DNA from: Candidatus Levyibacteriota bacterium
GTDB lineage: Bacteria; Patescibacteriota; Microgenomatia; Levybacterales; UBA12049
Reading direction: 5' to 3'
DNA: 64,000 nt
NCBI GenBank assembly: GCA_016432345.1
Contig: CP066685.1
Span: 624,236 to 688,235 of the forward strand
Under the pieces are notes generated by a model. That model did not search any database, had not been told where the DNA came from, and worked only from the letters and a program-made list of their open reading frames with translations. The position numbers and the translations under genes are program-made. Positions 17,600 through 27,992 of the stretch are shown here, one piece after another (positions within the stretch are counted from its first letter, which is position 1; the number at the start of each line of letters is the position of its first letter).

Positions 17600-18775
17600 C
17601 TAATCACCTGGTACATCAAAAACCAGAACAGTTAAAATTAACTCGCGGTTAGGATCATCTTTGTGATTTAATAAATAACGAAATCCAGTTTCGGATTTAA
17701 ACTCCATGTCTCTTTTATAATTTGGGTGTTCTTTAATTGTTGGTGGAATTTTTTCTAAAACAGCAGATAGATTTTTATTTCGATTAAAAATTATTAGTGC
17801 GGTTTTTGTATCCCTCCATGATGCATAACCCAATAACTGATCTAAGGCTTTGGCTAAATATTCTGGTCCCTCCCAGAATTTACATTCAGCAATAAAGATA
17901 TTTTTCTCTTTGTAGCGGATTAATATATCCGTCTTGCCGTTGTAGTTAAAAGTTTCTCCTGTTGCGCCACCCGGGAAAAGTCCATTCAGAGGCACTAAAA
18001 GTAGGAAGCGCAATGTTTCTTCCTCCATATCCTGAAAAGCTTTAGGGCTTCTCTCAAATACTAATGTCATATGATGAATAGCATCTAGTATCGAATCGTA
18101 ATCACTTTCACTTAAAAAGTATTCCTGATTTTGGGATTTACTGCCAGTAGATTGACTAATATTTAATTGTTTTTTTCTCACAGGTATTTCGTAAAATCTC
18201 TTTGCTACTGAGTCACTCTTTAGGGGGTATCTGAACGACTCAACAAACTGTCTATTTTTTCCAACTTGAGCAGCTCTATTCAAAAATTGACTGTTGATAA
18301 AACTAGAAAGGTGAACATTAAATCCTTTTATATCATAATTTAAATTCTCGATATTAAACTGTAAATCCTCCAGATCCTTTTCAAACATAGATTGTACTGT
18401 CTCGGGGTAATCGGTAGACGATGTATATACATAAGAAATCCCACCATTAACGATACTCATACAATCTTTGGGTAGTCTATAGGTAGATGGGTTGTATTCA
18501 AGTAAGTTAGTATCGCCACTTATTGGCACAAAGAAAGTCGTGCGCATTGCATTTGATCCAAAGCCATCTCTGTTAATTTCTGAGTGTTCTCGATCTATCT
18601 GGTCTTTATTTAGCTCAAATGAGGGAAGCATATAATTCTCAAGAAATTCCTTTTGTAAGCTTGCACCTTGAGAGTCTATAATATGATCAAGATTAGCAAT
18701 GCTTTTTATGATTTCCTCTTTAATTTTTTGAAAGACGTAACTAAGATTGCCTTTTCTAAATGGTATGTTATTCAT
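17600..18775 (-). CDS. protein with C-terminal PD-(D/E)XK-like nuclease motif
   Basis: 391 aa. The C-terminal GKTDILIRYKEKNIFIAECKFWEG fits D...(E)xK. The N-terminal ~250 aa have no motif. Confidence 0.55.
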   Translation of the reverse strand: MNNIPFRKGNLSYVFQKIKEEIIKSIANLDHIIDSQGASLQKEFLENYMLPSFELNKDQIDREHSEINRDGFGSNAMRTTFFVPISGDTNLLEYNPSTYRLPKDCMSIVNGGISYVYTSSTDYPETVQSMFEKDLEDLQFNIENLNYDIKGFNVHLSSFINSQFLNRAAQVGKNRQFVESFRYPLKSDSVAKRFYEIPVRKKQLNISQSTGSKSQNQEYFLSESDYDSILDAIHHMTLVFERSPKAFQDMEEETLRFLLLVPLNGLFPGGATGETFNYNGKTDILIRYKEKNIFIAECKFWEGPEYLAKALDQLLGYASWRDTKTALIIFNRNKNLSAVLEKIPPTIKEHPNYKRDMEFKSETGFRYLLNHKDDPNRELILTVLVFDVPGD

Positions 18776-19559: not shown

Positions 19560-21134
19560 ATGGGTGAAAGAATCCAACCAAACGACTTAAGTACATCTCG
19601 AGACCCTCATTTGCAGGGTCTTATAGCGCAGAATATCCAAGCTCTAGGTGAGCAACCTCTAGTTAGAGTTGTTCAAGCACTCCAAAGATTCAATGGTCCC
19701 GTAACAGTTCAAGAGAAGGATGGAACGCAAAGGGTTGATAACAACTGGCATTTAAGACAGGTCTTACAAGAATTACCAGGTTATGCAGAAGCATCGGAAC
19801 ATGCTGGATTAGCACCAGACCAAGCTGAAGGATTACTTACTCACCTACTAAACTCTACTCCATATGACTTCGAACGCAATGAAATTAATGTCTCATTACT
19901 TAAACGTTCACTTAATCAGGAAGCCGAGCTTAATCAGAGACTTACCAAAAGAGATATCGGTAGACTAAGAAGAATGATTACCATAGCAGGTAAATATGGA
20001 GTGCTCCCTCACACAATTTACGGCTATACAACAGCCCGAAGAATTGGGCTTTCTATACAAGATAGCACAGCAATGGTCATGCACCTATCTGATGCAGATG
20101 GTTCATTAGCTGGTTATACTTTTGGTTCATTTAATGAGGCACTCTCATCCTTAGCTATTGCACAAGTTGACCCTGAAGTTGTCAAAGATACTTTTGCTCG
20201 TGTAGGCGGAAGAAGACCATATTTTAGACAGGGTTTATATAGGGCACTCGAAGAAATGATTACATTTGGCTGTCCTTCAAATAGAACAAATCCCCAGGAA
20301 GTATTACAGGGACTACTCGCAAACCTACAAGAGGGTGAAGATATTGAAACGGCTATAGAAAGATATCTTAGTGAAGAACAAAGAAAACTTCCAAACGAGA
20401 ATGAAGTGGTAATTTATGAACTAGGTGAAGAAAGAGATAGCTACTTTATTCCCAAGGCTGGACATCTTGAACTCGCTGCTTTACCATACAGAACCCAGCG
20501 TGGTTTGAATGATGGAGTAAGGGACTTAGAAGAAATTGCTAGAGCTCGAAGTCATAGATGGGAATCTGTTGGTGAGGGCATGTGGATTTTTGACCCCAAT
20601 GGAGACACTTGGTATTCGTTAGGTGGTAAAACAGAAGTCCATCCAGATAGGGTTAGGCATAACTTTATTCCTTATGACGCCTCTCAACTTAGCGAAAAGC
20701 CCTATATGTTTCACACCCATCCTGAAGATTTGGAAGTAATGCTAAGAAATCCTTACGATGATTTCCCATCCAGGGAATATAGAGATCATGTTACTAAGTT
20801 TTTGTCTTCTACACCAAGCAGGGCTGATTATTCTGTGGTTGCAGATACCATTGAAAGAGCTACTTCAGAAATTCATCCTAGATCATTTATCGTTCACTCA
20901 TTAGGAATAACGGAATTCACATACCCAAATGATTTAGAAAAAATAAAAGAAATGGCTACTAAATCAAGAGACATTAGAGATCAGGCTATGTTAAATTTCG
21001 GCTGGGATTACCTTCATTGGAGACGAGATATTATCGATGAACCAACAGTAGCGAGAATGCTAATAGATGATTTGAATAAACTTCTACCCGAAGGATTCTC
21101 AATTAAATTGCATGAGCCTGGAACCAATCTCTAA
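19560..21134 (+). CDS. hypothetical soluble protein with C-terminal JAB/MPN-like metal-site motif
   Basis: 524 aa. MFHTHPED...(~30 aa)...SSTPSRADY resembles the H-x-H...S-x-x-D motif of JAMM/RadC-type domains, but with a long insertion. Confidence 0.55.
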   Translation: MGERIQPNDLSTSRDPHLQGLIAQNIQALGEQPLVRVVQALQRFNGPVTVQEKDGTQRVDNNWHLRQVLQELPGYAEASEHAGLAPDQAEGLLTHLLNSTPYDFERNEINVSLLKRSLNQEAELNQRLTKRDIGRLRRMITIAGKYGVLPHTIYGYTTARRIGLSIQDSTAMVMHLSDADGSLAGYTFGSFNEALSSLAIAQVDPEVVKDTFARVGGRRPYFRQGLYRALEEMITFGCPSNRTNPQEVLQGLLANLQEGEDIETAIERYLSEEQRKLPNENEVVIYELGEERDSYFIPKAGHLELAALPYRTQRGLNDGVRDLEEIARARSHRWESVGEGMWIFDPNGDTWYSLGGKTEVHPDRVRHNFIPYDASQLSEKPYMFHTHPEDLEVMLRNPYDDFPSREYRDHVTKFLSSTPSRADYSVVADTIERATSEIHPRSFIVHSLGITEFTYPNDLEKIKEMATKSRDIRDQAMLNFGWDYLHWRRDIIDEPTVARMLIDDLNKLLPEGFSIKLHEPGTNL

Positions 21135-21242
21135 AAGGGTGCTTAAGAAGTATGATCTACCTGTAATTGAAGAATAAACTATACATACTTATACATTTTT
21201 CAGGCCAAATTGGTAGGCAAACTCAGAGTTTAGACCGTCCTG

Positions 21243-21295
21243 AAGGAATAATTTGAAAAACTCACGCAGTCTGTGCAATATATCGTTGGGATCAC
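21243..21295. repeat. ~53-bp direct repeat, copy 2
   Basis: See 19120-19172. It also reads as TTGAAA-17 nt-CAATAT, which is promoter-like on the + strand. Confidence 0.75.
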
Positions 21296-21299
21296 TGAA

Positions 21300-21520
21300 T
21301 TGGAAATCCCAAAAGAGTCCAAAGGTTGGCTCTGCGCGGGAACGGGCGCGCAGAGCTCTGCAAAGCCCCGTTTGAATTCTGGCACAAGTCGCCGATCAGT
21401 TAAAAAGAAGTTCGAGCCGACAGTTTTTGCTCCGATTGCTAAATCGGAGCATGTATTTTTTGCAAACACAAAAGACAGATGCGCGCGATTTTTTATATTA
21501 TAATCCCGCAAGGCGGGACA
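21300..21520. ncRNA. GC-rich hairpin-dense non-coding island R1 (unknown family; orientation unresolved)
   Basis: Three strong hairpins: 21329-21356 (10 bp), 21429-21450 (9 bp) and 21504-21518 (6 bp). The core GTTCGAGCCGACAGTTTTT at 21410-21428 is shared with 26732-26750. The only ORFs here are mutually overlapping on both strands. Confidence 0.4.
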
Positions 21521-21576
21521 AGACAAAACACAAATGTTTTCTTAGTCAACCCTACTAAAGCTCATTTATATTTAAC

Positions 21577-22533
21577 TTATTGGAGAAACTTAAAGGAGTT
21601 AAGTATTAAATCTACCGTGGCTTTTTCTGTTGGTTCTGTCTTATTTTTAGTATTAACAGCAGCTATCCAAATATAAATTACTTGGTCGCCTAATGGTTGA
21701 AAGTCAGCAAAATAATATACTTTGGAATGTGTTCCATCCTCATATTTAGAAGTCCACACAGCAACATCTTTACCATTTAGAGTTTTTTGTTCTATGGATT
21801 CAGTTTTTGCCCCTTGCTTATCCTCACCATATTTAGCATCATCTTTAACAAAAGCTAGCAGTTCATTCATGTTTGAAACTTTACCGCTATCCTTGTACCA
21901 GAAATATAAATTGGTATCAGTATCTTTATCGGAAGTGATAGTTACTTGCCCTTGCGCAAAAGGATAAGTACTTCTTTTCCAAGACTTTGGATAGTCAAAA
22001 GAGTAACCAAATTTCTTATCTTCATAATGAACCATTTCTCCCTGCTGAATTGTCTTAACATCATTTAGTTTATAAAGAACTACATTTCCTACAACAACAA
22101 GAACCGCAAGTGAAACTAGTCCTAAGAAAATCCAAGTAACAATTTTACCTATTTTTCCAAGAGGTTTGTTTGTACCACTAGCAGCTCTTTTTCCTCCAAA
22201 TCCTCCAATAAGGGTTATTGCTAGTCCTTGCCCAAAAGTAATTTCTTGTGTTAAAAGATAGACAACCACAGCTCCTAGTAAGCTGGCAAATAATGTAATT
22301 GATACTCCCTGCCAGAAAGGAGAGCCTAAAACCTTATTTACTTCTGGTGTTTTAGATAAAGATTTGACTCCGTAATAACCTGCAAGCCATGCAAAAAGTA
22401 GATTAAAAGGGACTTCTATCAAAGGACTACTCCCGCTCCCAAAAAGATAAGCAAAAAATAGGCTAACTGCAATGTTACCAAGAATTAATAATCCACTATA
22501 AATTAGTAAAGTTCGAAGAATTTTTGACCACAT
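21577..22533 (-). CDS. membrane protein with extracytoplasmic C-terminal domain
   Basis: 318 aa with ~5 N-terminal TM helices and a soluble domain (FGYSFDYPKSWK...). No catalytic motif. Confidence 0.6.
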   Translation of the reverse strand: MWSKILRTLLIYSGLLILGNIAVSLFFAYLFGSGSSPLIEVPFNLLFAWLAGYYGVKSLSKTPEVNKVLGSPFWQGVSITLFASLLGAVVVYLLTQEITFGQGLAITLIGGFGGKRAASGTNKPLGKIGKIVTWIFLGLVSLAVLVVVGNVVLYKLNDVKTIQQGEMVHYEDKKFGYSFDYPKSWKRSTYPFAQGQVTITSDKDTDTNLYFWYKDSGKVSNMNELLAFVKDDAKYGEDKQGAKTESIEQKTLNGKDVAVWTSKYEDGTHSKVYYFADFQPLGDQVIYIWIAAVNTKNKTEPTEKATVDLILNSFKFLQ

Positions 22534-22657
22534 ATTATTATTATCAGTATCTCAGAAAAATGGCTCTATTGCAATTAGAATTTTAATTGTTTTTAACTTA
22601 TGCTTTTTGAGGTACTTATCCCTTGACAACAAGGCTTAACTATGCTACACTAGCCTC

Positions 22658-23548
22658 ATGTCAGAAAAATTTAGCCTCCGTTCATTCAAGCAAAAATATG
22701 GTACGCATCAAGACTGCCTCGAAGCTATTAAGCAACTTCGTTTCCCCGATCCTTTTACTTGCCCAAAATGCAATACTATGCAGAAATTTTACCCTGTAAG
22801 TGGTCGTACAGCGTATGCTTGCAACAGTTGTGGAAACCACATCTATCCCCTAGCAGGAACAATCTTTGAGAAATCTACTACTCCCTTAGACTTATGGTTC
22901 TTTGCTATGTATCTTATGACACAAACGAGAAGTGGCACATCGGCTAAACAACTTGAAAGAATGTTAGGAGTAACATACAAGACAGCTTGGAGAATGTTTA
23001 AGCAGATAAGATTGCTTATGGTACAGTCTCCATCACTTTTAGATGGAATTGTGGAGATTGACGAAACATATTTTGGTGGTAAAGGAAAAAACAGAGCCTA
23101 CCAGTGGCATGGTGGGGTAGAGGAAAAAGAAATCATTATGGGCATTGTCAAAAGGAAAGGCACAGCTTACGCAAAACATATTCCTGATACGAAAAAGTGG
23201 ACTTTAATCAATCAAATAAAACAACATGTTGATCCCAAAGCCCATGTCATGACCGATGATCTTGCTTCATACAGACATTTATACGATCATGGATTCTACA
23301 AACACTACAGCGTAAACCATTCAAACAGGGAATACGTTAGACACCACCTTTTCCATACGAATAATGTAGAGGGCTTGTGGTCGCATATAAAACGTGGGGT
23401 TTATGGTGTGTATAGGAAAGTCAGTAAAAAATACTTACAGGCATATATTGACGAATACACCTGGAGATACAATAATAGGAATTATATCGGTGGAATGTTT
23501 GATATCTTGCTAAAACAGGTTACAGAAGTTAAGATAATAAAAGAGTAA
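22658..23548 (+). CDS. IS1595-family (ISXO2-like) DDE transposase
   Basis: 296 aa. N-terminal Zn-ribbon CPKC...CNSC, then VEIDETYFGG and MTDDLASY...NNVEGLWSHIKR, typical of DDE_Tnp_IS1595. Confidence 0.9.
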   Translation: MSEKFSLRSFKQKYGTHQDCLEAIKQLRFPDPFTCPKCNTMQKFYPVSGRTAYACNSCGNHIYPLAGTIFEKSTTPLDLWFFAMYLMTQTRSGTSAKQLERMLGVTYKTAWRMFKQIRLLMVQSPSLLDGIVEIDETYFGGKGKNRAYQWHGGVEEKEIIMGIVKRKGTAYAKHIPDTKKWTLINQIKQHVDPKAHVMTDDLASYRHLYDHGFYKHYSVNHSNREYVRHHLFHTNNVEGLWSHIKRGVYGVYRKVSKKYLQAYIDEYTWRYNNRNYIGGMFDILLKQVTEVKIIKE

Positions 23549-23549
23549 T

Positions 23550-24497
23550 ATGAATGTAGCAGTAAATAATTTCGCAATAGAAATTCGCAATAAATCATGG
23601 GCGAATAATGAGTATATACCCTCCTGGGTCGATATAGATGCTATTGGACTGGATCAGTTTTTCACTCACCCTTCTATTGCAAAAGCATGTTGGGACTCCC
23701 TCTGCAAATACATGCAATTAGATGGTGTCAATATAGCTCATTATAAATTTGTTGAACCAGGAGCAGGGCTTGGAGCGTTTTATGACCTGTTGCCAAAGAA
23801 TCGCTGTATAGGAATTGACGTTGTTCGGTTTCGTCCTGAATATATCCAAAAAGATTTTCTTACATGGTTACCAAGAAAAAATGGTTACAGTTATGCCTGT
23901 GTAGGTAATCCCCCCTTCGGTTACAGAGCATGGCTGGCTTTGGCTTTCCTAAATCACGCTGCTAAGTTTTCCAATTATGTTGGTTTTATTCTTCCTATGG
24001 CATTTCAAAGTAGGGGCAAAAGTAACGTACAAGATAGAGTTAGAGGGCTTCATCTTGCTCATTCGTCGCCACTACCATCTAATAGTTTTGTTGATGCCGA
24101 TGGCAATATCTTGAAGGTGAATGCCTTGTGGCAGATATGGACACGATCAGACAATAAGAAGGTAACCACACCCAAAACATGTAATCAGTATATTGACCTG
24201 TTCACAGTAGACATGAGAAAAGAGCGACTATGTGGGCAAAAACGACTTGATGAGGCAGACTTCTTTTTACAACGCACCTTTTATACCAAACCTCCATCGT
24301 TAGTTACTAACTTTGACCAAGTCAAATACGTGTGTGGCTATGGTATTGTAATCAAGCGTGACAGGAGAAAAGTGCTTAAGGCATTACGAAATGCTGACTG
24401 GAAGCATTACAGTAATCTTGCAAGTCATAATTGCAGACATATAAGCATGGGTCACATCCGTGCAGCATTGACCGATAGAGGATTTATAGATAGATGA
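23550..24497 (+). CDS. N6-adenine DNA methyltransferase
   Basis: 315 aa. Motif I VEPGAGLGAF and motif IV GNPPFGY. Starts 1 nt after the transposase stop. Confidence 0.8.
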   Translation: MNVAVNNFAIEIRNKSWANNEYIPSWVDIDAIGLDQFFTHPSIAKACWDSLCKYMQLDGVNIAHYKFVEPGAGLGAFYDLLPKNRCIGIDVVRFRPEYIQKDFLTWLPRKNGYSYACVGNPPFGYRAWLALAFLNHAAKFSNYVGFILPMAFQSRGKSNVQDRVRGLHLAHSSPLPSNSFVDADGNILKVNALWQIWTRSDNKKVTTPKTCNQYIDLFTVDMRKERLCGQKRLDEADFFLQRTFYTKPPSLVTNFDQVKYVCGYGIVIKRDRRKVLKALRNADWKHYSNLASHNCRHISMGHIRAALTDRGFIDR

Positions 24498-24997
24498 TTG
24501 ATCCATTAGCTTTACTATTAGAAATCGCCAAAGAAAAAACAAAACTAGGTAAATGGAGTGGTCAGCCATTGGAGTTAATTAAGGTCATGCCCAATAGTAC
24601 TAAGGGTGACTTGGTAGAAACCTTTATTATTGAATACAGCAAGGAGTTGGGTTTTGATGTGGTAGATAGAACTAATCGTCTTGGAGATTATGACGCAAAA
24701 ATAAATGGAATGACCTTCGAAATCAAAATGGCAACAGAAGATATTAGTGGAAATTTCCAGTTCAATCACATAAGGTACGATTATACTTACGATTGGATAT
24801 TGTGTGTTGGAATCGCTCCCGCTGATATTATATTTGACATATGGTCCAAAGCCGATCTTGTTACGGGCAAAGCAGGAAAACTTGTGTCAATGGGGCGTGG
24901 ACAAAACTCTAGTTTCAAATTAACAAAACAAAAGAAGTCTTTACACCCAATCAGTGAATTCATGTCGGAAATAAAATCCCTTGCAAAAGAAAAGTAA
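24494..24997 (+). CDS. candidate cognate restriction endonuclease (PD-(D/E)XK-like)
   Basis: 167 aa with a 4-nt ATGA overlap with the MTase gene. GDYDAKINGMTFEIKMA fits D-x(n)-E-x-K. Confidence 0.5.
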   Translation: MIDPLALLLEIAKEKTKLGKWSGQPLELIKVMPNSTKGDLVETFIIEYSKELGFDVVDRTNRLGDYDAKINGMTFEIKMATEDISGNFQFNHIRYDYTYDWILCVGIAPADIIFDIWSKADLVTGKAGKLVSMGRGQNSSFKLTKQKKSLHPISEFMSEIKSLAKEK

Positions 24998-25082
24998 AAA
25001 TATGTACCCCGTAGTTTTATCTATCTAACATGAAGGGATAGTTACCTTATTATTACAACAGAACCCATAAATCCTGTCGTGA

Positions 25083-25307
25083 ATGACTACACCAAGTCCA
25101 TTATACGAAAAAACTGGCGGAATAGAGGTTGCAATTCTTGATTGTTTGGGACTTCTAAGACATTTCCTTCATCTTTTTTATAGACTTAGGGCAAAATTCT
25201 TAGACGAATATCAAGTCGCTTTATTAAAAGAACCCGACAGTGCGGTTAGAGAAGAATTGAAAGAGGCTTTTTTAGCACTTCGAAAGGCCGCTAAAAGTAT
25301 CGGCTAA
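25083..25307 (+). CDS. hypothetical small protein
   Basis: 74-aa ORF only; no RBS or motif recognised. Confidence 0.25.
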   Translation: MTTPSPLYEKTGGIEVAILDCLGLLRHFLHLFYRLRAKFLDEYQVALLKEPDSAVREELKEAFLALRKAAKSIG

Positions 25308-25436
25308 CCTGAAAATTGAATAGCCCGTTTTAGCAGAGTAAGGAAATCCTTTTTAGCTCCTTTACGTCCACCTTGCTTAATGAATGCTTTTAGCTTCTTA
25401 TCGGTTTCTTTCTTTTTCGATTTATTTTTTAGTTTA

Positions 25437-26354
25437 TTATGTTGTTCCATTGACATTGATAGGTATCTCTAGCTGATTGCTATTATCTGCTTGAATAATA
25501 TCTTTTACTTTTAATATTTCATAGTGTGTCCCAATTACTTCGTTATTATAATCATAATTTACCGTTATTTTGACATTTGCTTTTAGTGAATCTCCTGGTC
25601 TAACATTTATTTCTCTTGCTTGGAATTTTCTTAGCCATTCTATGTCAATGATTTTTGCATAAATAGGGATTTTTTCGTGCCGTAACTCCCATTGTGAATC
25701 GCCTAAGTAATCTGGTTTCTTAACTTTAAGTATCATTTCTGTTTTATTTGAAATTGACTCTTTTGTCAGCAAATCCTCTATTGATTCAGGAGAAAAATTA
25801 AATTCTAAATTAAAATCAACTCTTTTTTGCTCAGAAGTAGCAAAAATAACTTTTCCTCCCTCATCTACATATTTTAGAGAATCAGAAATTCTTCTTATCC
25901 CACCAATTAGTTTCGCTGTAGGAATAGGTGAATAGGAAGGGATCCTTTTTACATCTGTTTCTTCCGCCAATTTATATAATCCATCCTCTAATTCTTTAAT
26001 TTGTTCTCGTGAAGAAATCTCAGTTTTTCCATCTAGAAATTTAATTATGGCGTATTTACCTTTTACTAAATAAGATCCAACAGCTTTTTTCCAATCCAAA
26101 TCTTTTAATCCATCATCTGGTATACTTTCTAAAGTATTTTTAAACCACCCCTTAATGGATCCTTTTTTTAAATCTTCCAGTACAGTAATGGGTTTAATTT
26201 TTGAATCAATTGAATTGACCAAATCTTCATCAACAGAATGTAATGCCTCAAGTATTTCCGATAATGTTCTAAAAGCCTTTGAGGGATTTACTTTAGTACT
26301 ATCAAATTGTATTTCTATACCAAAATCAGGTGTAAGATCAGTATTATTTACCAT
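25437..26354 (-). CDS. hypothetical soluble protein (orphan, 305 aa)
   Basis: Long ORF, Lys/Glu/Asp/Ile-rich, with no motif. Confidence 0.5.
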   Translation of the reverse strand: MVNNTDLTPDFGIEIQFDSTKVNPSKAFRTLSEILEALHSVDEDLVNSIDSKIKPITVLEDLKKGSIKGWFKNTLESIPDDGLKDLDWKKAVGSYLVKGKYAIIKFLDGKTEISSREQIKELEDGLYKLAEETDVKRIPSYSPIPTAKLIGGIRRISDSLKYVDEGGKVIFATSEQKRVDFNLEFNFSPESIEDLLTKESISNKTEMILKVKKPDYLGDSQWELRHEKIPIYAKIIDIEWLRKFQAREINVRPGDSLKANVKITVNYDYNNEVIGTHYEILKVKDIIQADNSNQLEIPINVNGTT

Positions 26355-26572
26355 AATTTAACTTTATTTTAAAATCTATATAAATGCAAGGAGTAGTTTT
26401 ATGAAAACTTGCAGTCGCCTTGCTGCAAGTTTAGCAGTAAAACATTAAGAAATCAAGGCATCAAAAATAATCAAACTATTCCTTGTTTTGATGGGATAAG
26501 TGCCCTTTTTGATTTAATTTGCATCAGATAATCAGTCTTGTATTAAGAGCCATTAACTGCTAAATTCTTGAT

Positions 26573-26890
26573 GGACTCAACAATTTACGAAATTGCTTTT
26601 TTTAATGGCGTAATCGGACAACAGAAAGCAATTTCTTGTTGAGTCCACCGGTTACGCCTTTTGAGTTGGAAAACTATAGGGGAAAAGTTCTTTAAAAATT
26701 TTCGCGTTTTTTGGGGTTGCTAAGGCAACCCGTTCGAGACGACAGTTTTTAGAGCTTCGGCCGAAGGCCGAGCGGATAAGAGGCGACGCGAAAAGGCGCG
26801 CGCCGCCTACCTTTGCGATTGGAAACGAGTTCGGATTTTTCGATAAACGCTCACCGTAGCGGGGTCTGATGAATCAGACTTATTGATTAG
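26573..26890. ncRNA. GC-rich hairpin-dense non-coding island R2 (unknown family; orientation unresolved)
   Basis: No ORF of 60 aa or more in any frame. A 22-bp interrupted helix pairs 26573-26599 with 26625-26646, and 11 nt of its loop are complementary to 26648-26658. Further hairpins lie at 26714-26731, 26754-26773 and 26864-26879. The core GTTCGAGACGACAGTTTTT sits at 26732-26750. A possible + strand promoter is TTGTAT-17 nt-TAAATT (26538-26566). Confidence 0.4.
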
Positions 26891-27023
26891 CTCGAAATAC
26901 GGCGCTAAACTAGTGTTTCCAGAAATTCCCCAACGACTGCTAAAACTATTGTCATATCTATATTTTTATCTTCCTGTTTATTCTTATTTTCGTTTAGTAC
27001 TGCTATTTCTTGTACAATTTCTT

Positions 27024-27176
27024 TTAAATTGTCCTCTCACCATTTTCCCCATAACCTGAGTAATTATGCTTGTCATAACCTAATATGGCTGTCCTTTCTC
27101 CCTCCATTAATGATTCCAGCATTAATTTAAACATCTTTTTTAATAATTCATCTTTGTTAATATTTTGGTTATTCAA
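27024..27176 (-). pseudogene. 50-codon ORF resembling the N-terminus of an IS256/Mutator-family transposase (remnant?)
   Basis: GGAGGTGA RBS 5 nt before a TTG start. LLKKMFKLMLESLMEGERTAILGYDKHNYSGYGENG loosely matches the conserved LMEAE...LGY...NGY N-terminal pattern. The frame stops after 50 codons and no catalytic domain follows. Confidence 0.3.
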
Positions 27177-27266
27177 ATTGTTCACCTCCCTTCCTTTTTA
27201 GTATAACTTAATCAGGAGTTTACACAATTTAGTTTACAGTACCGAAAATTGTGATACACTAAAAAA

Positions 27267-27992
27267 GTGGATGTTTTATTCTTTATATCAGCATTTTTGG
27301 CAGAAGTTATTGGTACAATAGCTGGTTTTGGTTCGTCAACTATATTTCTTCCTCTTACATTACTATTTTTTGATTTTCGTACCGCTTTGGTCTTGGTTGC
27401 TTTCTTTCATATCATCGGCAATATCGGAAGAATTAGCTTTTTTAGACATGGCTTAGATAAGAGTTTAATTGTTGAGTTTGGTATTCCAAGTGTTGTCCTT
27501 ACTCTTATAGGAGCACTGCTTGTGTCGTCCATACCCCAAGATGTACTGAAAGGAATTTTAGGTATATTCCTTGTTTCATTTGCAATTTACTCCCTTTGGA
27601 AAGAGGATTTTGTAATACCTGCCTCAACGACCAATGCAGTGATAGGTGGCGGCTTATCAGGCTTTCTTGCCGGGCTTATAGGTACAGGAGGAGCATTGCG
27701 TGGAGCTTTCTTGACTGGCTTTAGATTACCAAAAGAAAAATACATCGCCACGGCTGCTGCAATTGCCTTAGCAGTAGATATTACAAGAATACCAGTTTAT
27801 CTAAACCAAGGGTTTTTAAGTAGTAAATATTACTGGTATCTGCCTGTTTTATTTATTCTGGCTATTGCAGGCTCTTTTACTGGAAGGCAGATTGTTAAAA
27901 GATTTAGATATGAGGTATTTAGAAAGATAGTTCTTATTGCTATTCTTTTAGTCGGGATAAAATTTATATTTGACTGGCTAGTAATAAATTAA
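27267..27992 (+). CDS. TauE/SafE (TSUP) family anion exporter
   Basis: 241 aa, polytopic. The AGFGSSTIFLPL and GTGGALRGAFL repeats are typical of the TSUP family. Confidence 0.75.
   Translation: MDVLFFISAFLAEVIGTIAGFGSSTIFLPLTLLFFDFRTALVLVAFFHIIGNIGRISFFRHGLDKSLIVEFGIPSVVLTLIGALLVSSIPQDVLKGILGIFLVSFAIYSLWKEDFVIPASTTNAVIGGGLSGFLAGLIGTGGALRGAFLTGFRLPKEKYIATAAAIALAVDITRIPVYLNQGFLSSKYYWYLPVLFILAIAGSFTGRQIVKRFRYEVFRKIVLIAILLVGIKFIFDWLVIN

Follow-up and report, generated by a model that had tools for sequence, protein, structure and literature searches.

The two GC-rich islands R1 and R2 of the analysed window, by which we mean the whole stretch of 64,000 nucleotides, very probably are the terminal modules of one integrative element that has lost the gene for its large serine recombinase (LSR); intact members of the family to which it belongs encode this enzyme. 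Judged from sequence comparisons, the copy in the window is in all likelihood a recombinase-less relic interrupted by an insertion sequence (IS), in which an attL-like R1 is followed by one cargo gene, an IS1595 element and an attR-like R2. Elements of this type appear to be widespread in the Patescibacteria (CPR) and abundant in the Microgenomates, and the family is apparently undescribed. For the window, an annotation as an IS-interrupted mobile-element relic would replace that of a candidate new CPR RNA.

Composition of the islands and map of the window element

The initial annotation had described R1 and R2 as GC-rich islands that share a 19-nt core with a hairpin close behind it, and these descriptive points were borne out. 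At 21250-21474 the GC content reaches ~0.50, at 26650-26874 it amounts to 0.49-0.56, and the surroundings have ~0.30-0.40. With an extent of ~21292-21555 (R1) and ~26573-26854 (R2), both islands are larger than stated earlier. The 19-mer GTTCGAG[C/A]CGACAGTTTTT is located at 21410-21428 and 26732-26750, both times on the + strand and with 18/19 positions identical. Given a chance expectation of 0.02, this repeat is far beyond chance, and no third copy was found in the 64 kb when up to three mismatches were allowed. The hairpins reported for R1 were recovered as a 10-bp stem at 21329-21338/21347-21356, GCTCCGATT/AATCGGAGC at 21429-21450 (P2) and ATCCCGC/GCGGGAC at 21503-21519, and that of R2 as GCTTCGGCC/GGCCGAGC at 26754-26773 (hpA). 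P2 follows the 19-mer directly and hpA 3 nt later, and the stem sequences of P2 and hpA differ, as had been noted.

The earlier statement that R1 contains no credible coding frame proved partly right. No gene is left, but the 98-codon ORF at 21230-21526 on the − strand carries the C-terminal remnant of an LSR, with 80% identity over 46 aa to LSR residues 466-511 (tblastn, E = 4e-18). Apart from this 46-codon remnant, no LSR gene was present anywhere in the 64 kb. The features of the element, which extends from ~21292 to 26852, are as follows.

21285-21295, + strand: tRNA 3′-end remnant GTTGGGATCAC; the tRNA end of the relatives, 114 nt before the 19-mer, maps to 21295
21292-21393, + strand: module X, the left arm, with P′-type half-site and covarying hairpin P1 (21329-21356), from the alignment and junction comparisons
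21326-21463, − strand: LSR pseudogene remnant, last ~46 conserved codons (..KNTCSDLAIGAKTVGSNFFLTDRRLVPEFKRGFAEL..), inside ORF 21230-21526
21410-21428, + strand: c box copy 1 GTTCGAGCCGACAGTTTTT, T-loop-like; its reverse complement encodes K-T-V-G-S-N
21428-21461, + strand (tRNA-sense): palindrome P2 (21429-21450) with T-run, terminator-like, from the terminator scan and covariation
21451-21495, + strand: t module ATGTATTTTTTGC ... GCGCGCGATTTTTT with a 17-nt insert; it encodes KIARAKN in intact genes
21496-21555, no strand assigned: module Y, two covarying hairpins, 12 distinct copies across 12 loci
21577-22533, − strand: cargo gene for a 318-aa PsbP_2-like protein (Pfam PF18933, E = 3e-7)
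22603-26512, + strand: secondary IS1595-family insertion including its target duplication, with four passenger ORFs (Pfam DDE_Tnp_IS1595)
26573-26731, + strand: outer part of R2, with stem-loops, box a and a small hairpin
26732-26750, + strand: c box copy 2 GTTCGAGACGACAGTTTTT, from the 19-mer repeat and the R2 model
26754-26826, + strand: hairpin hpA (26754-26773) and arm m, including a hairpin at ~26782-26807, from comparison with relatives
26827-26854, + strand: ptE, a pseudo tRNA 3′ end GAGTTCGGATTTTTCGATAAACGCTCAC read as P-type half-site, from junction comparisons and the half-site rule

R1 can be read as X, 16 nt, c box, P2 and t module, fused to module Y, and R2 as outer stems, box a, small hairpin, c box, hpA, arm m and ptE. 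ARAGORN detected no tRNA at 21285-21295, the rest of the tRNA gene being absent, and the tRNA-like sequence left of the attL-like end (~21292) comprises only ~11 nt. The putative crossover dinucleotide of this end is TC at 21292-21293. Because the tRNA body is missing, attL of the window is assigned by homology. At the right end, the crossover presumably occurred at TC at 26851-26852, which is followed by ACC and unrelated DNA and thus gives an attR-like junction. With R1 as attL-side arm and R2 as attR-side arm, the earlier notion of a recombination site is supported in substance, and so is the idea that the two copies delimit a mobile segment, the DNA between them being cargo plus IS. R1 and R2 could, however, also be remnants of two different elements.

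For the count of module Y copies, the window was not counted separately from L099, which is a contig of the same population. In all 12 distinct copies the sequence TATAA(T/A) is invariant, and a promoter scan of the window revealed a promoter-like TTGTCT-18-TATAAT on the − strand (21526..21497) that is directed towards the t module and the hairpin. L024 and L037, which among the relatives come closest to R1 plus Y, have module Y in common with the window; within the examined range, neither contained an R2. The position of the cargo gene is occupied by unrelated genes in other recombinase-less copies (L010, L038, L055, L062, L063, L089).

The IS1595-family element proper spans 22611-26504, has inverted repeats of 24 nt (22611-22634 and 26481-26504) and is directly flanked by the 8-bp target duplication CTTTTTGA (22603-22610 and 26505-26512). 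Its transposase gene (22658-23548) lies between the islands, as would be the case if R1 and R2 were the ends or by-products of this transposon. However, the IS has its own inverted repeats and duplication, and the islands lie beyond them, R1 1.1 kb and R2 70 nt outside the IS ends. A homologue of the transposase was, moreover, found in none of ~170 related loci. An origin of R1 and R2 as IS1595 ends was therefore rejected as extremely improbable.

The outer part of R2 contains the stem-loops GGACTCAAC../..GTTGAGTCC and GGCGTAA..TTACGCC, the latter followed by TTTT, as well as box a at 26683-26712 and the small covarying hairpin at 26713-26731. An nhmmer model built from four R2-type sequences matched the window at 26569-26874 (E = 2e-91). 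In relatives, the stretch 26754-26826 forms the start of an inverted repeat that flanks the cargo segment.

Related loci, their recombinase and the adjoining tRNA genes

An exact scan for the 19-mer in one genome per GTDB species yielded 98 loci, 92 of them with long homologous flanks (R1, or in three cases R2 instead) and six being unrelated chance matches. Nearly all titles of these loci refer to Microgenomates or Patescibacteria, the groups being Levy-, Davies-, Roizman-, Woese-, Gottesman-, Shapiro-, Collier-, Ames- and Beckwithbacteria, WWE3 and others. Several loci with the same element are entitled 'uncultured Gammaproteobacteria' and are probably mislabelled. The proteins encoded next to the islands in the window had no homologue adjoining any related locus.

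ORF clustering showed that in ~50 of the 92 loci the R1 homologue forms the 3′ end of an ORF of 480-600 codons on the opposite strand. R1 corresponds to the antisense of the last ~90 codons of this gene, which encodes an LSR of ~500 aa with the domains Resolvase (PF00239), Recombinase (PF07508) and Zn_ribbon_recom (PF13408) and a distant, weak similarity to CcrB and XisF. Read in the direction of the LSR gene, the 19-mer contains the codons AAA ACT GTC GGC TCG AAC for K-T-V-G-S-N. To remove the bias of searching by the 19-mer, metagenome contigs were searched with an alignment of six LSRs, which gave at least 592 relatives; 80 loci with 45-70% identity were kept. The family is very common in Microgenomates, and some genomes contain several copies of the element. 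Many elements are only ~2-4 kb in size and lack phage genes. A phage or plasmid origin was rejected, as the 19-mer was missing in viral contigs and BLASTN of phage and plasmid collections gave no match. No candidate for a recombination directionality factor was identified in the family, and a literature search on serine recombinases with tRNA targets in Patescibacteria/CPR retrieved nothing relevant.

In most R1-type loci, a tRNA gene on the strand of the 19-mer ends ~114 nt (112-116) before it. At least nine tRNA identities are represented (Gln, Pro, Lys, Glu, Gly, Leu, Thr, Arg, Tyr). Among the metagenome loci, a convergent tRNA gene directly follows the LSR gene in 26 of the 30 with enough downstream sequence (13 identities there, more overall), and a tRNA gene upstream of the LSR gene was found in 0/36. 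In all 48 genome loci uncut by a contig end, the stop-to-stop frame of the LSR extends beyond the junction and continues antisense to the tRNA. The LSR gene converges on the tRNA gene, with its frame running through X on the way. A similar arrangement is known from the integration-dependent immunity of the mycobacteriophages BPs and Brujita, where the attachment site lies inside a reading frame and the C-terminus depends on integration (PMC9262239). Likewise, the tail of the LSR is here encoded by X plus tRNA antisense. In contrast, the split gene of these phages encodes the repressor and their integrase is a tyrosine recombinase, and a regulatory use of the LSR tail is hypothetical.

In most intact loci, the R2 model found an inverted match just upstream of the LSR start, ~+1585 to +1874 relative to the 19-mer. 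This leader module is conserved over ~290 nt. In LSR sense it consists of outer stems, box a, a small covarying hairpin, c box, hpA, arm m and, at its end, ptE, which mimics a T-loop; the sequence upstream of the outer stems is unrelated between loci. After ptE (GAGTTCGAATTTTTCGATAAACG..) follow a copy of X (~100 nt), the leader and the ATG. The X copy upstream of the LSR start and the X copy at the tRNA are inverted repeats of 103-110 nt which are 99-100% identical within ~25 loci and differ between sub-families. Intact elements consequently contain an internal, inverted ptE/X junction of the attP type, and this was counted against an explanation as LSR element. To our knowledge, ordinary prophages have no such internal junction.

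Junctions and putative attachment sites

When the tRNA/X and ptE/X junctions of the same locus were compared, identity started sharply 4-6 nt before the tRNA 3′ end, at nt 71/72. This suggests that the element starts at this position and that the final few nucleotides of the tRNA come from it. Sub-families carry a matching tRNA tail (TCACCA, CAGCCA, CGACC or GCAC), and with an element extending from X to ptE, tRNA nt 71-76 would be rebuilt by the element. A GGTTCGAAT box is present in both left flanks and, on the tRNA side, represents the T-loop. On the tRNA side, the G of the GTTCGA box precedes the first shared base by 18 nt in 15/16 distinct loci; on the ptE side, the spacing is 22-23 nt in 16/16. 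In serine integrases, the motif bound by the zinc-ribbon domain (ZD motif) occupies half-site positions 16-24 in attP and 11-19 in attB, corresponding to a 5-bp shift (PMC3783163). As the GTTCGA box lies 4-5 bp further out in ptE, tRNA/X would be attL (B-P′) and ptE/X an attP-type site (P-P′). The T-loop box may well be the ZD motif of the target. Since the T-loop is universal, this would explain the existence of sub-families adapted to nearly every tRNA species. The right half-site, i.e., the start of X, contains no clear inverted T-loop box.

At the right ends of ~15 loci, ptE and the crossover pair are followed by 1-4 tRNA-tail-like bases (G, GC, GCC or GCCA; ACCA in L081) and then by unrelated DNA, which points to attR (P-B′). 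In L010, L015 and L055, 11-15 nt resembling the start of X precede the divergence. Tests for tRNA-derived direct repeats as marks of the far end were negative: 16-mers taken from the tRNA 3′ end are not found again downstream, and the far end is not marked by any repeat of ≥11 nt derived from the tRNA. This lack of long direct repeats is as expected for a serine recombinase with its 2-bp crossover. The LSR would catalyse attP x attB recombination at the tRNA and ptE sites.

Several of these properties agree with those of LSR elements (A118/LI, Bxb1, phiC31, SPbeta, and also CcrAB of SCCmec and XisF). The recombinase has the same composition of Resolvase, Recombinase and zinc-ribbon domains, although this three-domain protein is encoded by the relatives and not by the window copy, and its gene is likewise located at one end of the element. 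The core is very short (~2 bp), the junctions lack long direct repeats, and the box, if taken as the ZD motif, is ~5 bp further out in attP than in attB, the 4-5-bp offset being on the element side as in the known systems. Unlike LSR elements, the family targets the 3′ ends of tRNA genes of nearly all identities, whereas the serine integrases of mycobacteriophages do not use tRNA genes (PMC9262239). Further differences are a recombinase ORF that reads across attL, a perfect inverted copy of the left arm (~105 nt) that creates the internal attP-type junction, additional T-loop-like boxes, and the frequent small size without phage genes, no member being found in viral, phage or plasmid collections. 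From these sequence features, the family seems to differ from known serine-integrase systems in its target, in the internal attP-type junction and in the repeated T-loop-like boxes.

Targeting of tRNA genes is usually the preserve of tyrosine integrases. As in tyrosine-integrase islands and prophages, the elements are located at tRNA 3′ ends and supply the displaced 3′ nucleotides, the integrase gene adjoins the tRNA gene, and decayed remnants without integrase are common. In contrast to these islands, the recombinase is of the serine type, only ~4-6 nt of the tRNA are replaced, and a common core or direct repeat of 15-45 bp is missing. The family would represent a systematic case of serine integrases that target tRNA genes. 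If the T-loop is indeed the zinc-ribbon motif, it would offer a natural series of integrases in which one element of the half-site is fixed and the other varies with tRNA identity; such a series would be useful for understanding and engineering LSR specificity.

c boxes, palindromes and structural variants

Each element contains two matching copies of the c box, one in the C-terminal codons of the LSR and one in the leader. Within a locus the copies co-vary, with 6.85 of 9 positions identical; shuffled partners agreed at 5.62 positions and, in 5000 shuffles, at no more than 6.15. The variable 7-9 nt occur as ACAGTTT, ATATTTT, ACTTTTT, ATACGTT, ACGGTTT, GCATTTT or ATTGTTT, in agreement between leader and coding copy of a locus. 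Despite an AT-rich background, GTTCGAGCCGA is nearly invariant in 28 homologues whose LSRs share 45-70% identity, and its invariance extends to the third positions of the GGC, TCG and AAC codons, which are synonymous sites. Furthermore, GGCTCGAAC recurs ~105 nt away in another reading frame, as W-L-E-P. Dyad symmetry is absent within the 19-mer. These data argue for a real shared core under selection at the nucleotide level.

The initial annotation had taken the combination of a shared core with a stem conserved in structure only as a sign of a functional RNA. The core stands, but the combination is not by itself evidence for RNA here. The bases concerned belong to a palindrome and a terminator and are at the same time under coding constraint. 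In the P2 stem, 349 of 405 cells are Watson-Crick across 45 variants, seven of the nine pairs predicted by RNAalifold show compensatory changes, and other hairpins covary as well. P2 covaries even though it encodes SDLAIG, HDLSIM or EELAFF in different sub-families. The terminator scan recognised 21428-21451 plus TGTATTTTTT on the + strand as a putative intrinsic terminator; LSR sub-families with 53-70% identity retain the T-run, which more distant sub-families lack. Such a terminator might stop read-through from the tRNA gene, which would otherwise run antisense into the LSR gene.

All this would also fit a structured non-coding RNA family, either an sRNA or a cis-regulator, with the 19-mer as core and the stems as RNA helices. 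In intact elements, the co-varying c boxes are complementary within the LSR mRNA (5′ leader versus 3′ end of the coding region), an RNA ending at P2 after tRNA read-through would be antisense to the LSR 3′ end, and the folding z-scores of the islands, although modest, range from −2.7 to −4.2 on either strand. Nevertheless, we consider such an RNA quite unlikely. R1 is coding sequence on the other strand in relatives, RNAalifold kept a single helix across the 28 homologues, the c boxes of the window are direct repeats and not complementary, and the boundaries of the islands coincide with att-type junctions. The mismatches in P2 are G-T in nine and A-C in nine cases, without strand asymmetry. 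Since these numbers are equal, G-U asymmetry does not separate an RNA helix from a DNA dyad. The reading as an RNA gene is not supported, and the earlier failure to assign R1 and R2 to an RNA family was confirmed: at gathering thresholds, Rfam matched only two tRNAs in the window, and even at E ≤ 10 a search over 20500-27500 gave nothing credible for either island. Models for HEARO and omega RNA gave no match in the window. A guide RNA of the TnpB/IscB/Cas-like type (omega RNA) was rejected, as the 524-aa and 391-aa neighbours have no Pfam match; the 524-aa upstream ORF is not a conserved neighbour of related loci.

Returning to the interpretation as terminal modules of an LSR element, the c box could serve as a recombinase-binding box or as an RNA pairing site. 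Our preferred guess is that the LSR binds this additional box in autoregulation or synapsis. The idea of a crossover dinucleotide located behind the c box at P-type spacing was rejected, since it agrees with the Gln-type (CA) and with the window type (TC) but does not hold for the other sub-families.

The order of the modules varies between loci. In twelve loci the modules are arranged as c+ t+ (LSR) c- ... t-, with the distal copy of hpA-m-ptE joined to 't-Y' and not to the c box. In one clear locus, L087, the intervening segment has the opposite orientation (c+ t+ t+ c+). Arrangements without LSR gene like that in the window recur in L010, L024, L037, L038, L055, L062, L063 and L089. The order tRNA/X, 16 nt, c, P2, t, hairpin or Y, an unrelated gene on the − strand, R2 (+) and ptE/host, without LSR gene, was found in at least eight loci. 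The window copy itself breaks at the t module, where the recombinase gene is missing, and might have arisen from an order of the L087 type by deletion between the two direct t repeats. L029 is a miniature that consists only of the two ends. In L017 and L088, which lack the LSR gene, R2 abuts the tRNA via a palindrome of 15-22 nt; these loci would also fit a narrower mobile unit X..LSR..X that inserts between tRNA and R2.

The variants raise the question whether the 19-mer plus hairpin is a second type of recombination site for internal rearrangements, i.e., inversion of the cargo or excision and insertion of the recombinase cassette. In that case, the direct copies of the window could excise 21.43-26.75 kb as a circle. 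A hairpin occupies the same position in three junctions, c-hairpin-t (R1), c-hairpin-m (R2) and m′-hairpin-t, and the order in L087 differs from that in the twelve loci as if by inversion between hairpin copies. Four loci (L072, L081, L087 and L093) show how the hairpin is divided: its left arm stays linked to the inner flank, GCTTCGGCC (variant GTTTGGGCC in L093) accompanying c and GCGAGGCC accompanying t, and its right arm is part of the inverted repeat together with what lies beyond. The repeat copies are identical in L087 and in L093; for L072 and L081 the identity is ~85-88%. This partition of the arms places the breakpoint near the hairpin loop, and all recombinase-less copies break at the t module. 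On the other hand, the inverted state is represented by L087 as the one clear locus, and the variants are equally well explained by homologous recombination, with the inverted repeats of ~100 nt and the t repeats of 13-26 nt as substrates. The repeat boundary of the Gln-type family does not coincide with a hairpin centre, the P2 and hpA sequences differ, and the identity of the two c boxes ends after 17 nt, the next 2 nt being different. We know of no serine integrase that uses two unrelated site types. A second site type therefore appears doubtful to us, if somewhat conceivable.

The internal repeats resemble the organisation of the yeast 2-micron plasmid and of the Hin/Gin segments, in which long inverted repeats likewise separate unique segments, the recombinase gene lies between the repeats and two relative orientations exist, seen here only between genomes. 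The recombinase classes and sites differ from those systems, the element described here is integrated, and a circular form is hypothetical. As a tentative proposal, which we hold to be possible rather than probable, the observations can be combined as follows. The family would be a very abundant, undescribed group of small LSR elements of Patescibacteria whose zinc-ribbon domain was re-targeted onto the universal T-loop, so that any tRNA 3′ end could be colonised. In a 2-micron-like manner, two inverted repeats of ~230 nt, each with an attP, would separate the recombinase segment from the cargo segment, and owing to these attP-bearing repeats, integration would leave an internal attP and an invertible cargo module that carries a promoter. 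The c boxes, including the 19-mer, would be accessory LSR-binding sites by which LSR expression or synapsis is made dependent on integration. The window copy would then be a non-autonomous satellite that an LSR acting in trans could mobilise.

At tRNA loci, assemblies of CPR genomes from short reads are fragmented by the repeats of the element. Short-read contigs of the population to which the window belongs break at c box/P2 and in R2, as expected for repeats.

Coding constraints on the left arm and the recombinase gene

In relatives of the window, the gene for the large serine recombinase (LSR) is convergent on the tRNA gene and its reading frame crosses X, the left arm of the element of about 100 nt. 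In all intact loci, the stop codon of this frame was never found inside X and occurred only within the tRNA antisense sequence. The last 3–70 residues of LSR therefore vary with the integration site, and would be different in an excised form.

A second GGTTCGAGCC box is present about 105 nt from the c box, the 19-mer shared by the GC-rich islands R1 and R2, and lies deeper in the LSR gene (e.g., L007, L012). It is often included in the perfect palindrome GGTTCGAGCCAACTCGAACC. The second box codes for W-L-E-P in a reading frame that differs from that of the c box, and its Leu codon is invariantly CTC; thus, one 9-mer is conserved in two frames.

Unusual derivatives of the element

Locus L029 carries, at +19 to +200 past the 19-mer, a miniature, MITE-like derivative lacking both recombinase and cargo, in which the left arm (X, c box, and the palindrome P2) is joined directly to the a box and outer stems of R2. 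At L088 (−1900 to +220 around its R2) and also at L017, R2-type arms (hairpin, the following arm m, and the pseudo tRNA 3′ end ptE) form terminal inverted repeats of about 130 nt. A perfect palindrome of 15–22 nt separates ptE from the tRNA 3′ end at these two loci, the usual place of X..LSR..X. Such an arrangement is either a target that is empty or a cassette that has collapsed.

Surroundings of R1 and R2 in the window

Two large ORFs are located directly upstream of R1, and a complete IS1595-family element is also present:

17600–18775, minus strand, large ORF of 391 aa
19560–21134, plus strand, large ORF of 524 aa
22603–26512, complete IS1595-family element (3,894 bp); inverted repeats of 24 nt; target duplication of 8 bp, CTTTTTGA

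Pfam searches with the two ORFs gave no match, and neither was found beside any related locus. Besides the transposase, the IS1595-family element contains four passenger ORFs (315, 167, 74, and 305 aa), none with a Pfam match. The short-read Logan contigs L099–L104 come from the same population and contain genes of the window; they break off at the c box/P2 (~21419–21434) and inside R2 (~26712). Assemblies of this organism are fragmented by these repeats.

Host labels of element-bearing records

The same Patescibacteria-type element also adjoins tRNAs in records with other host names: numerous TPA_asm co-assembly bins bear the title 'uncultured Gammaproteobacteria', and one record each is titled 'Woesearchaeota', 'Bathyarchaeia', and 'Actinomycetota'. 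Loci in such non-Patescibacteria-titled records include L001–L004, L012, L017, L033, and others of the 19-mer genome scan. Mis-binning or mislabelling is the likely cause of these titles.
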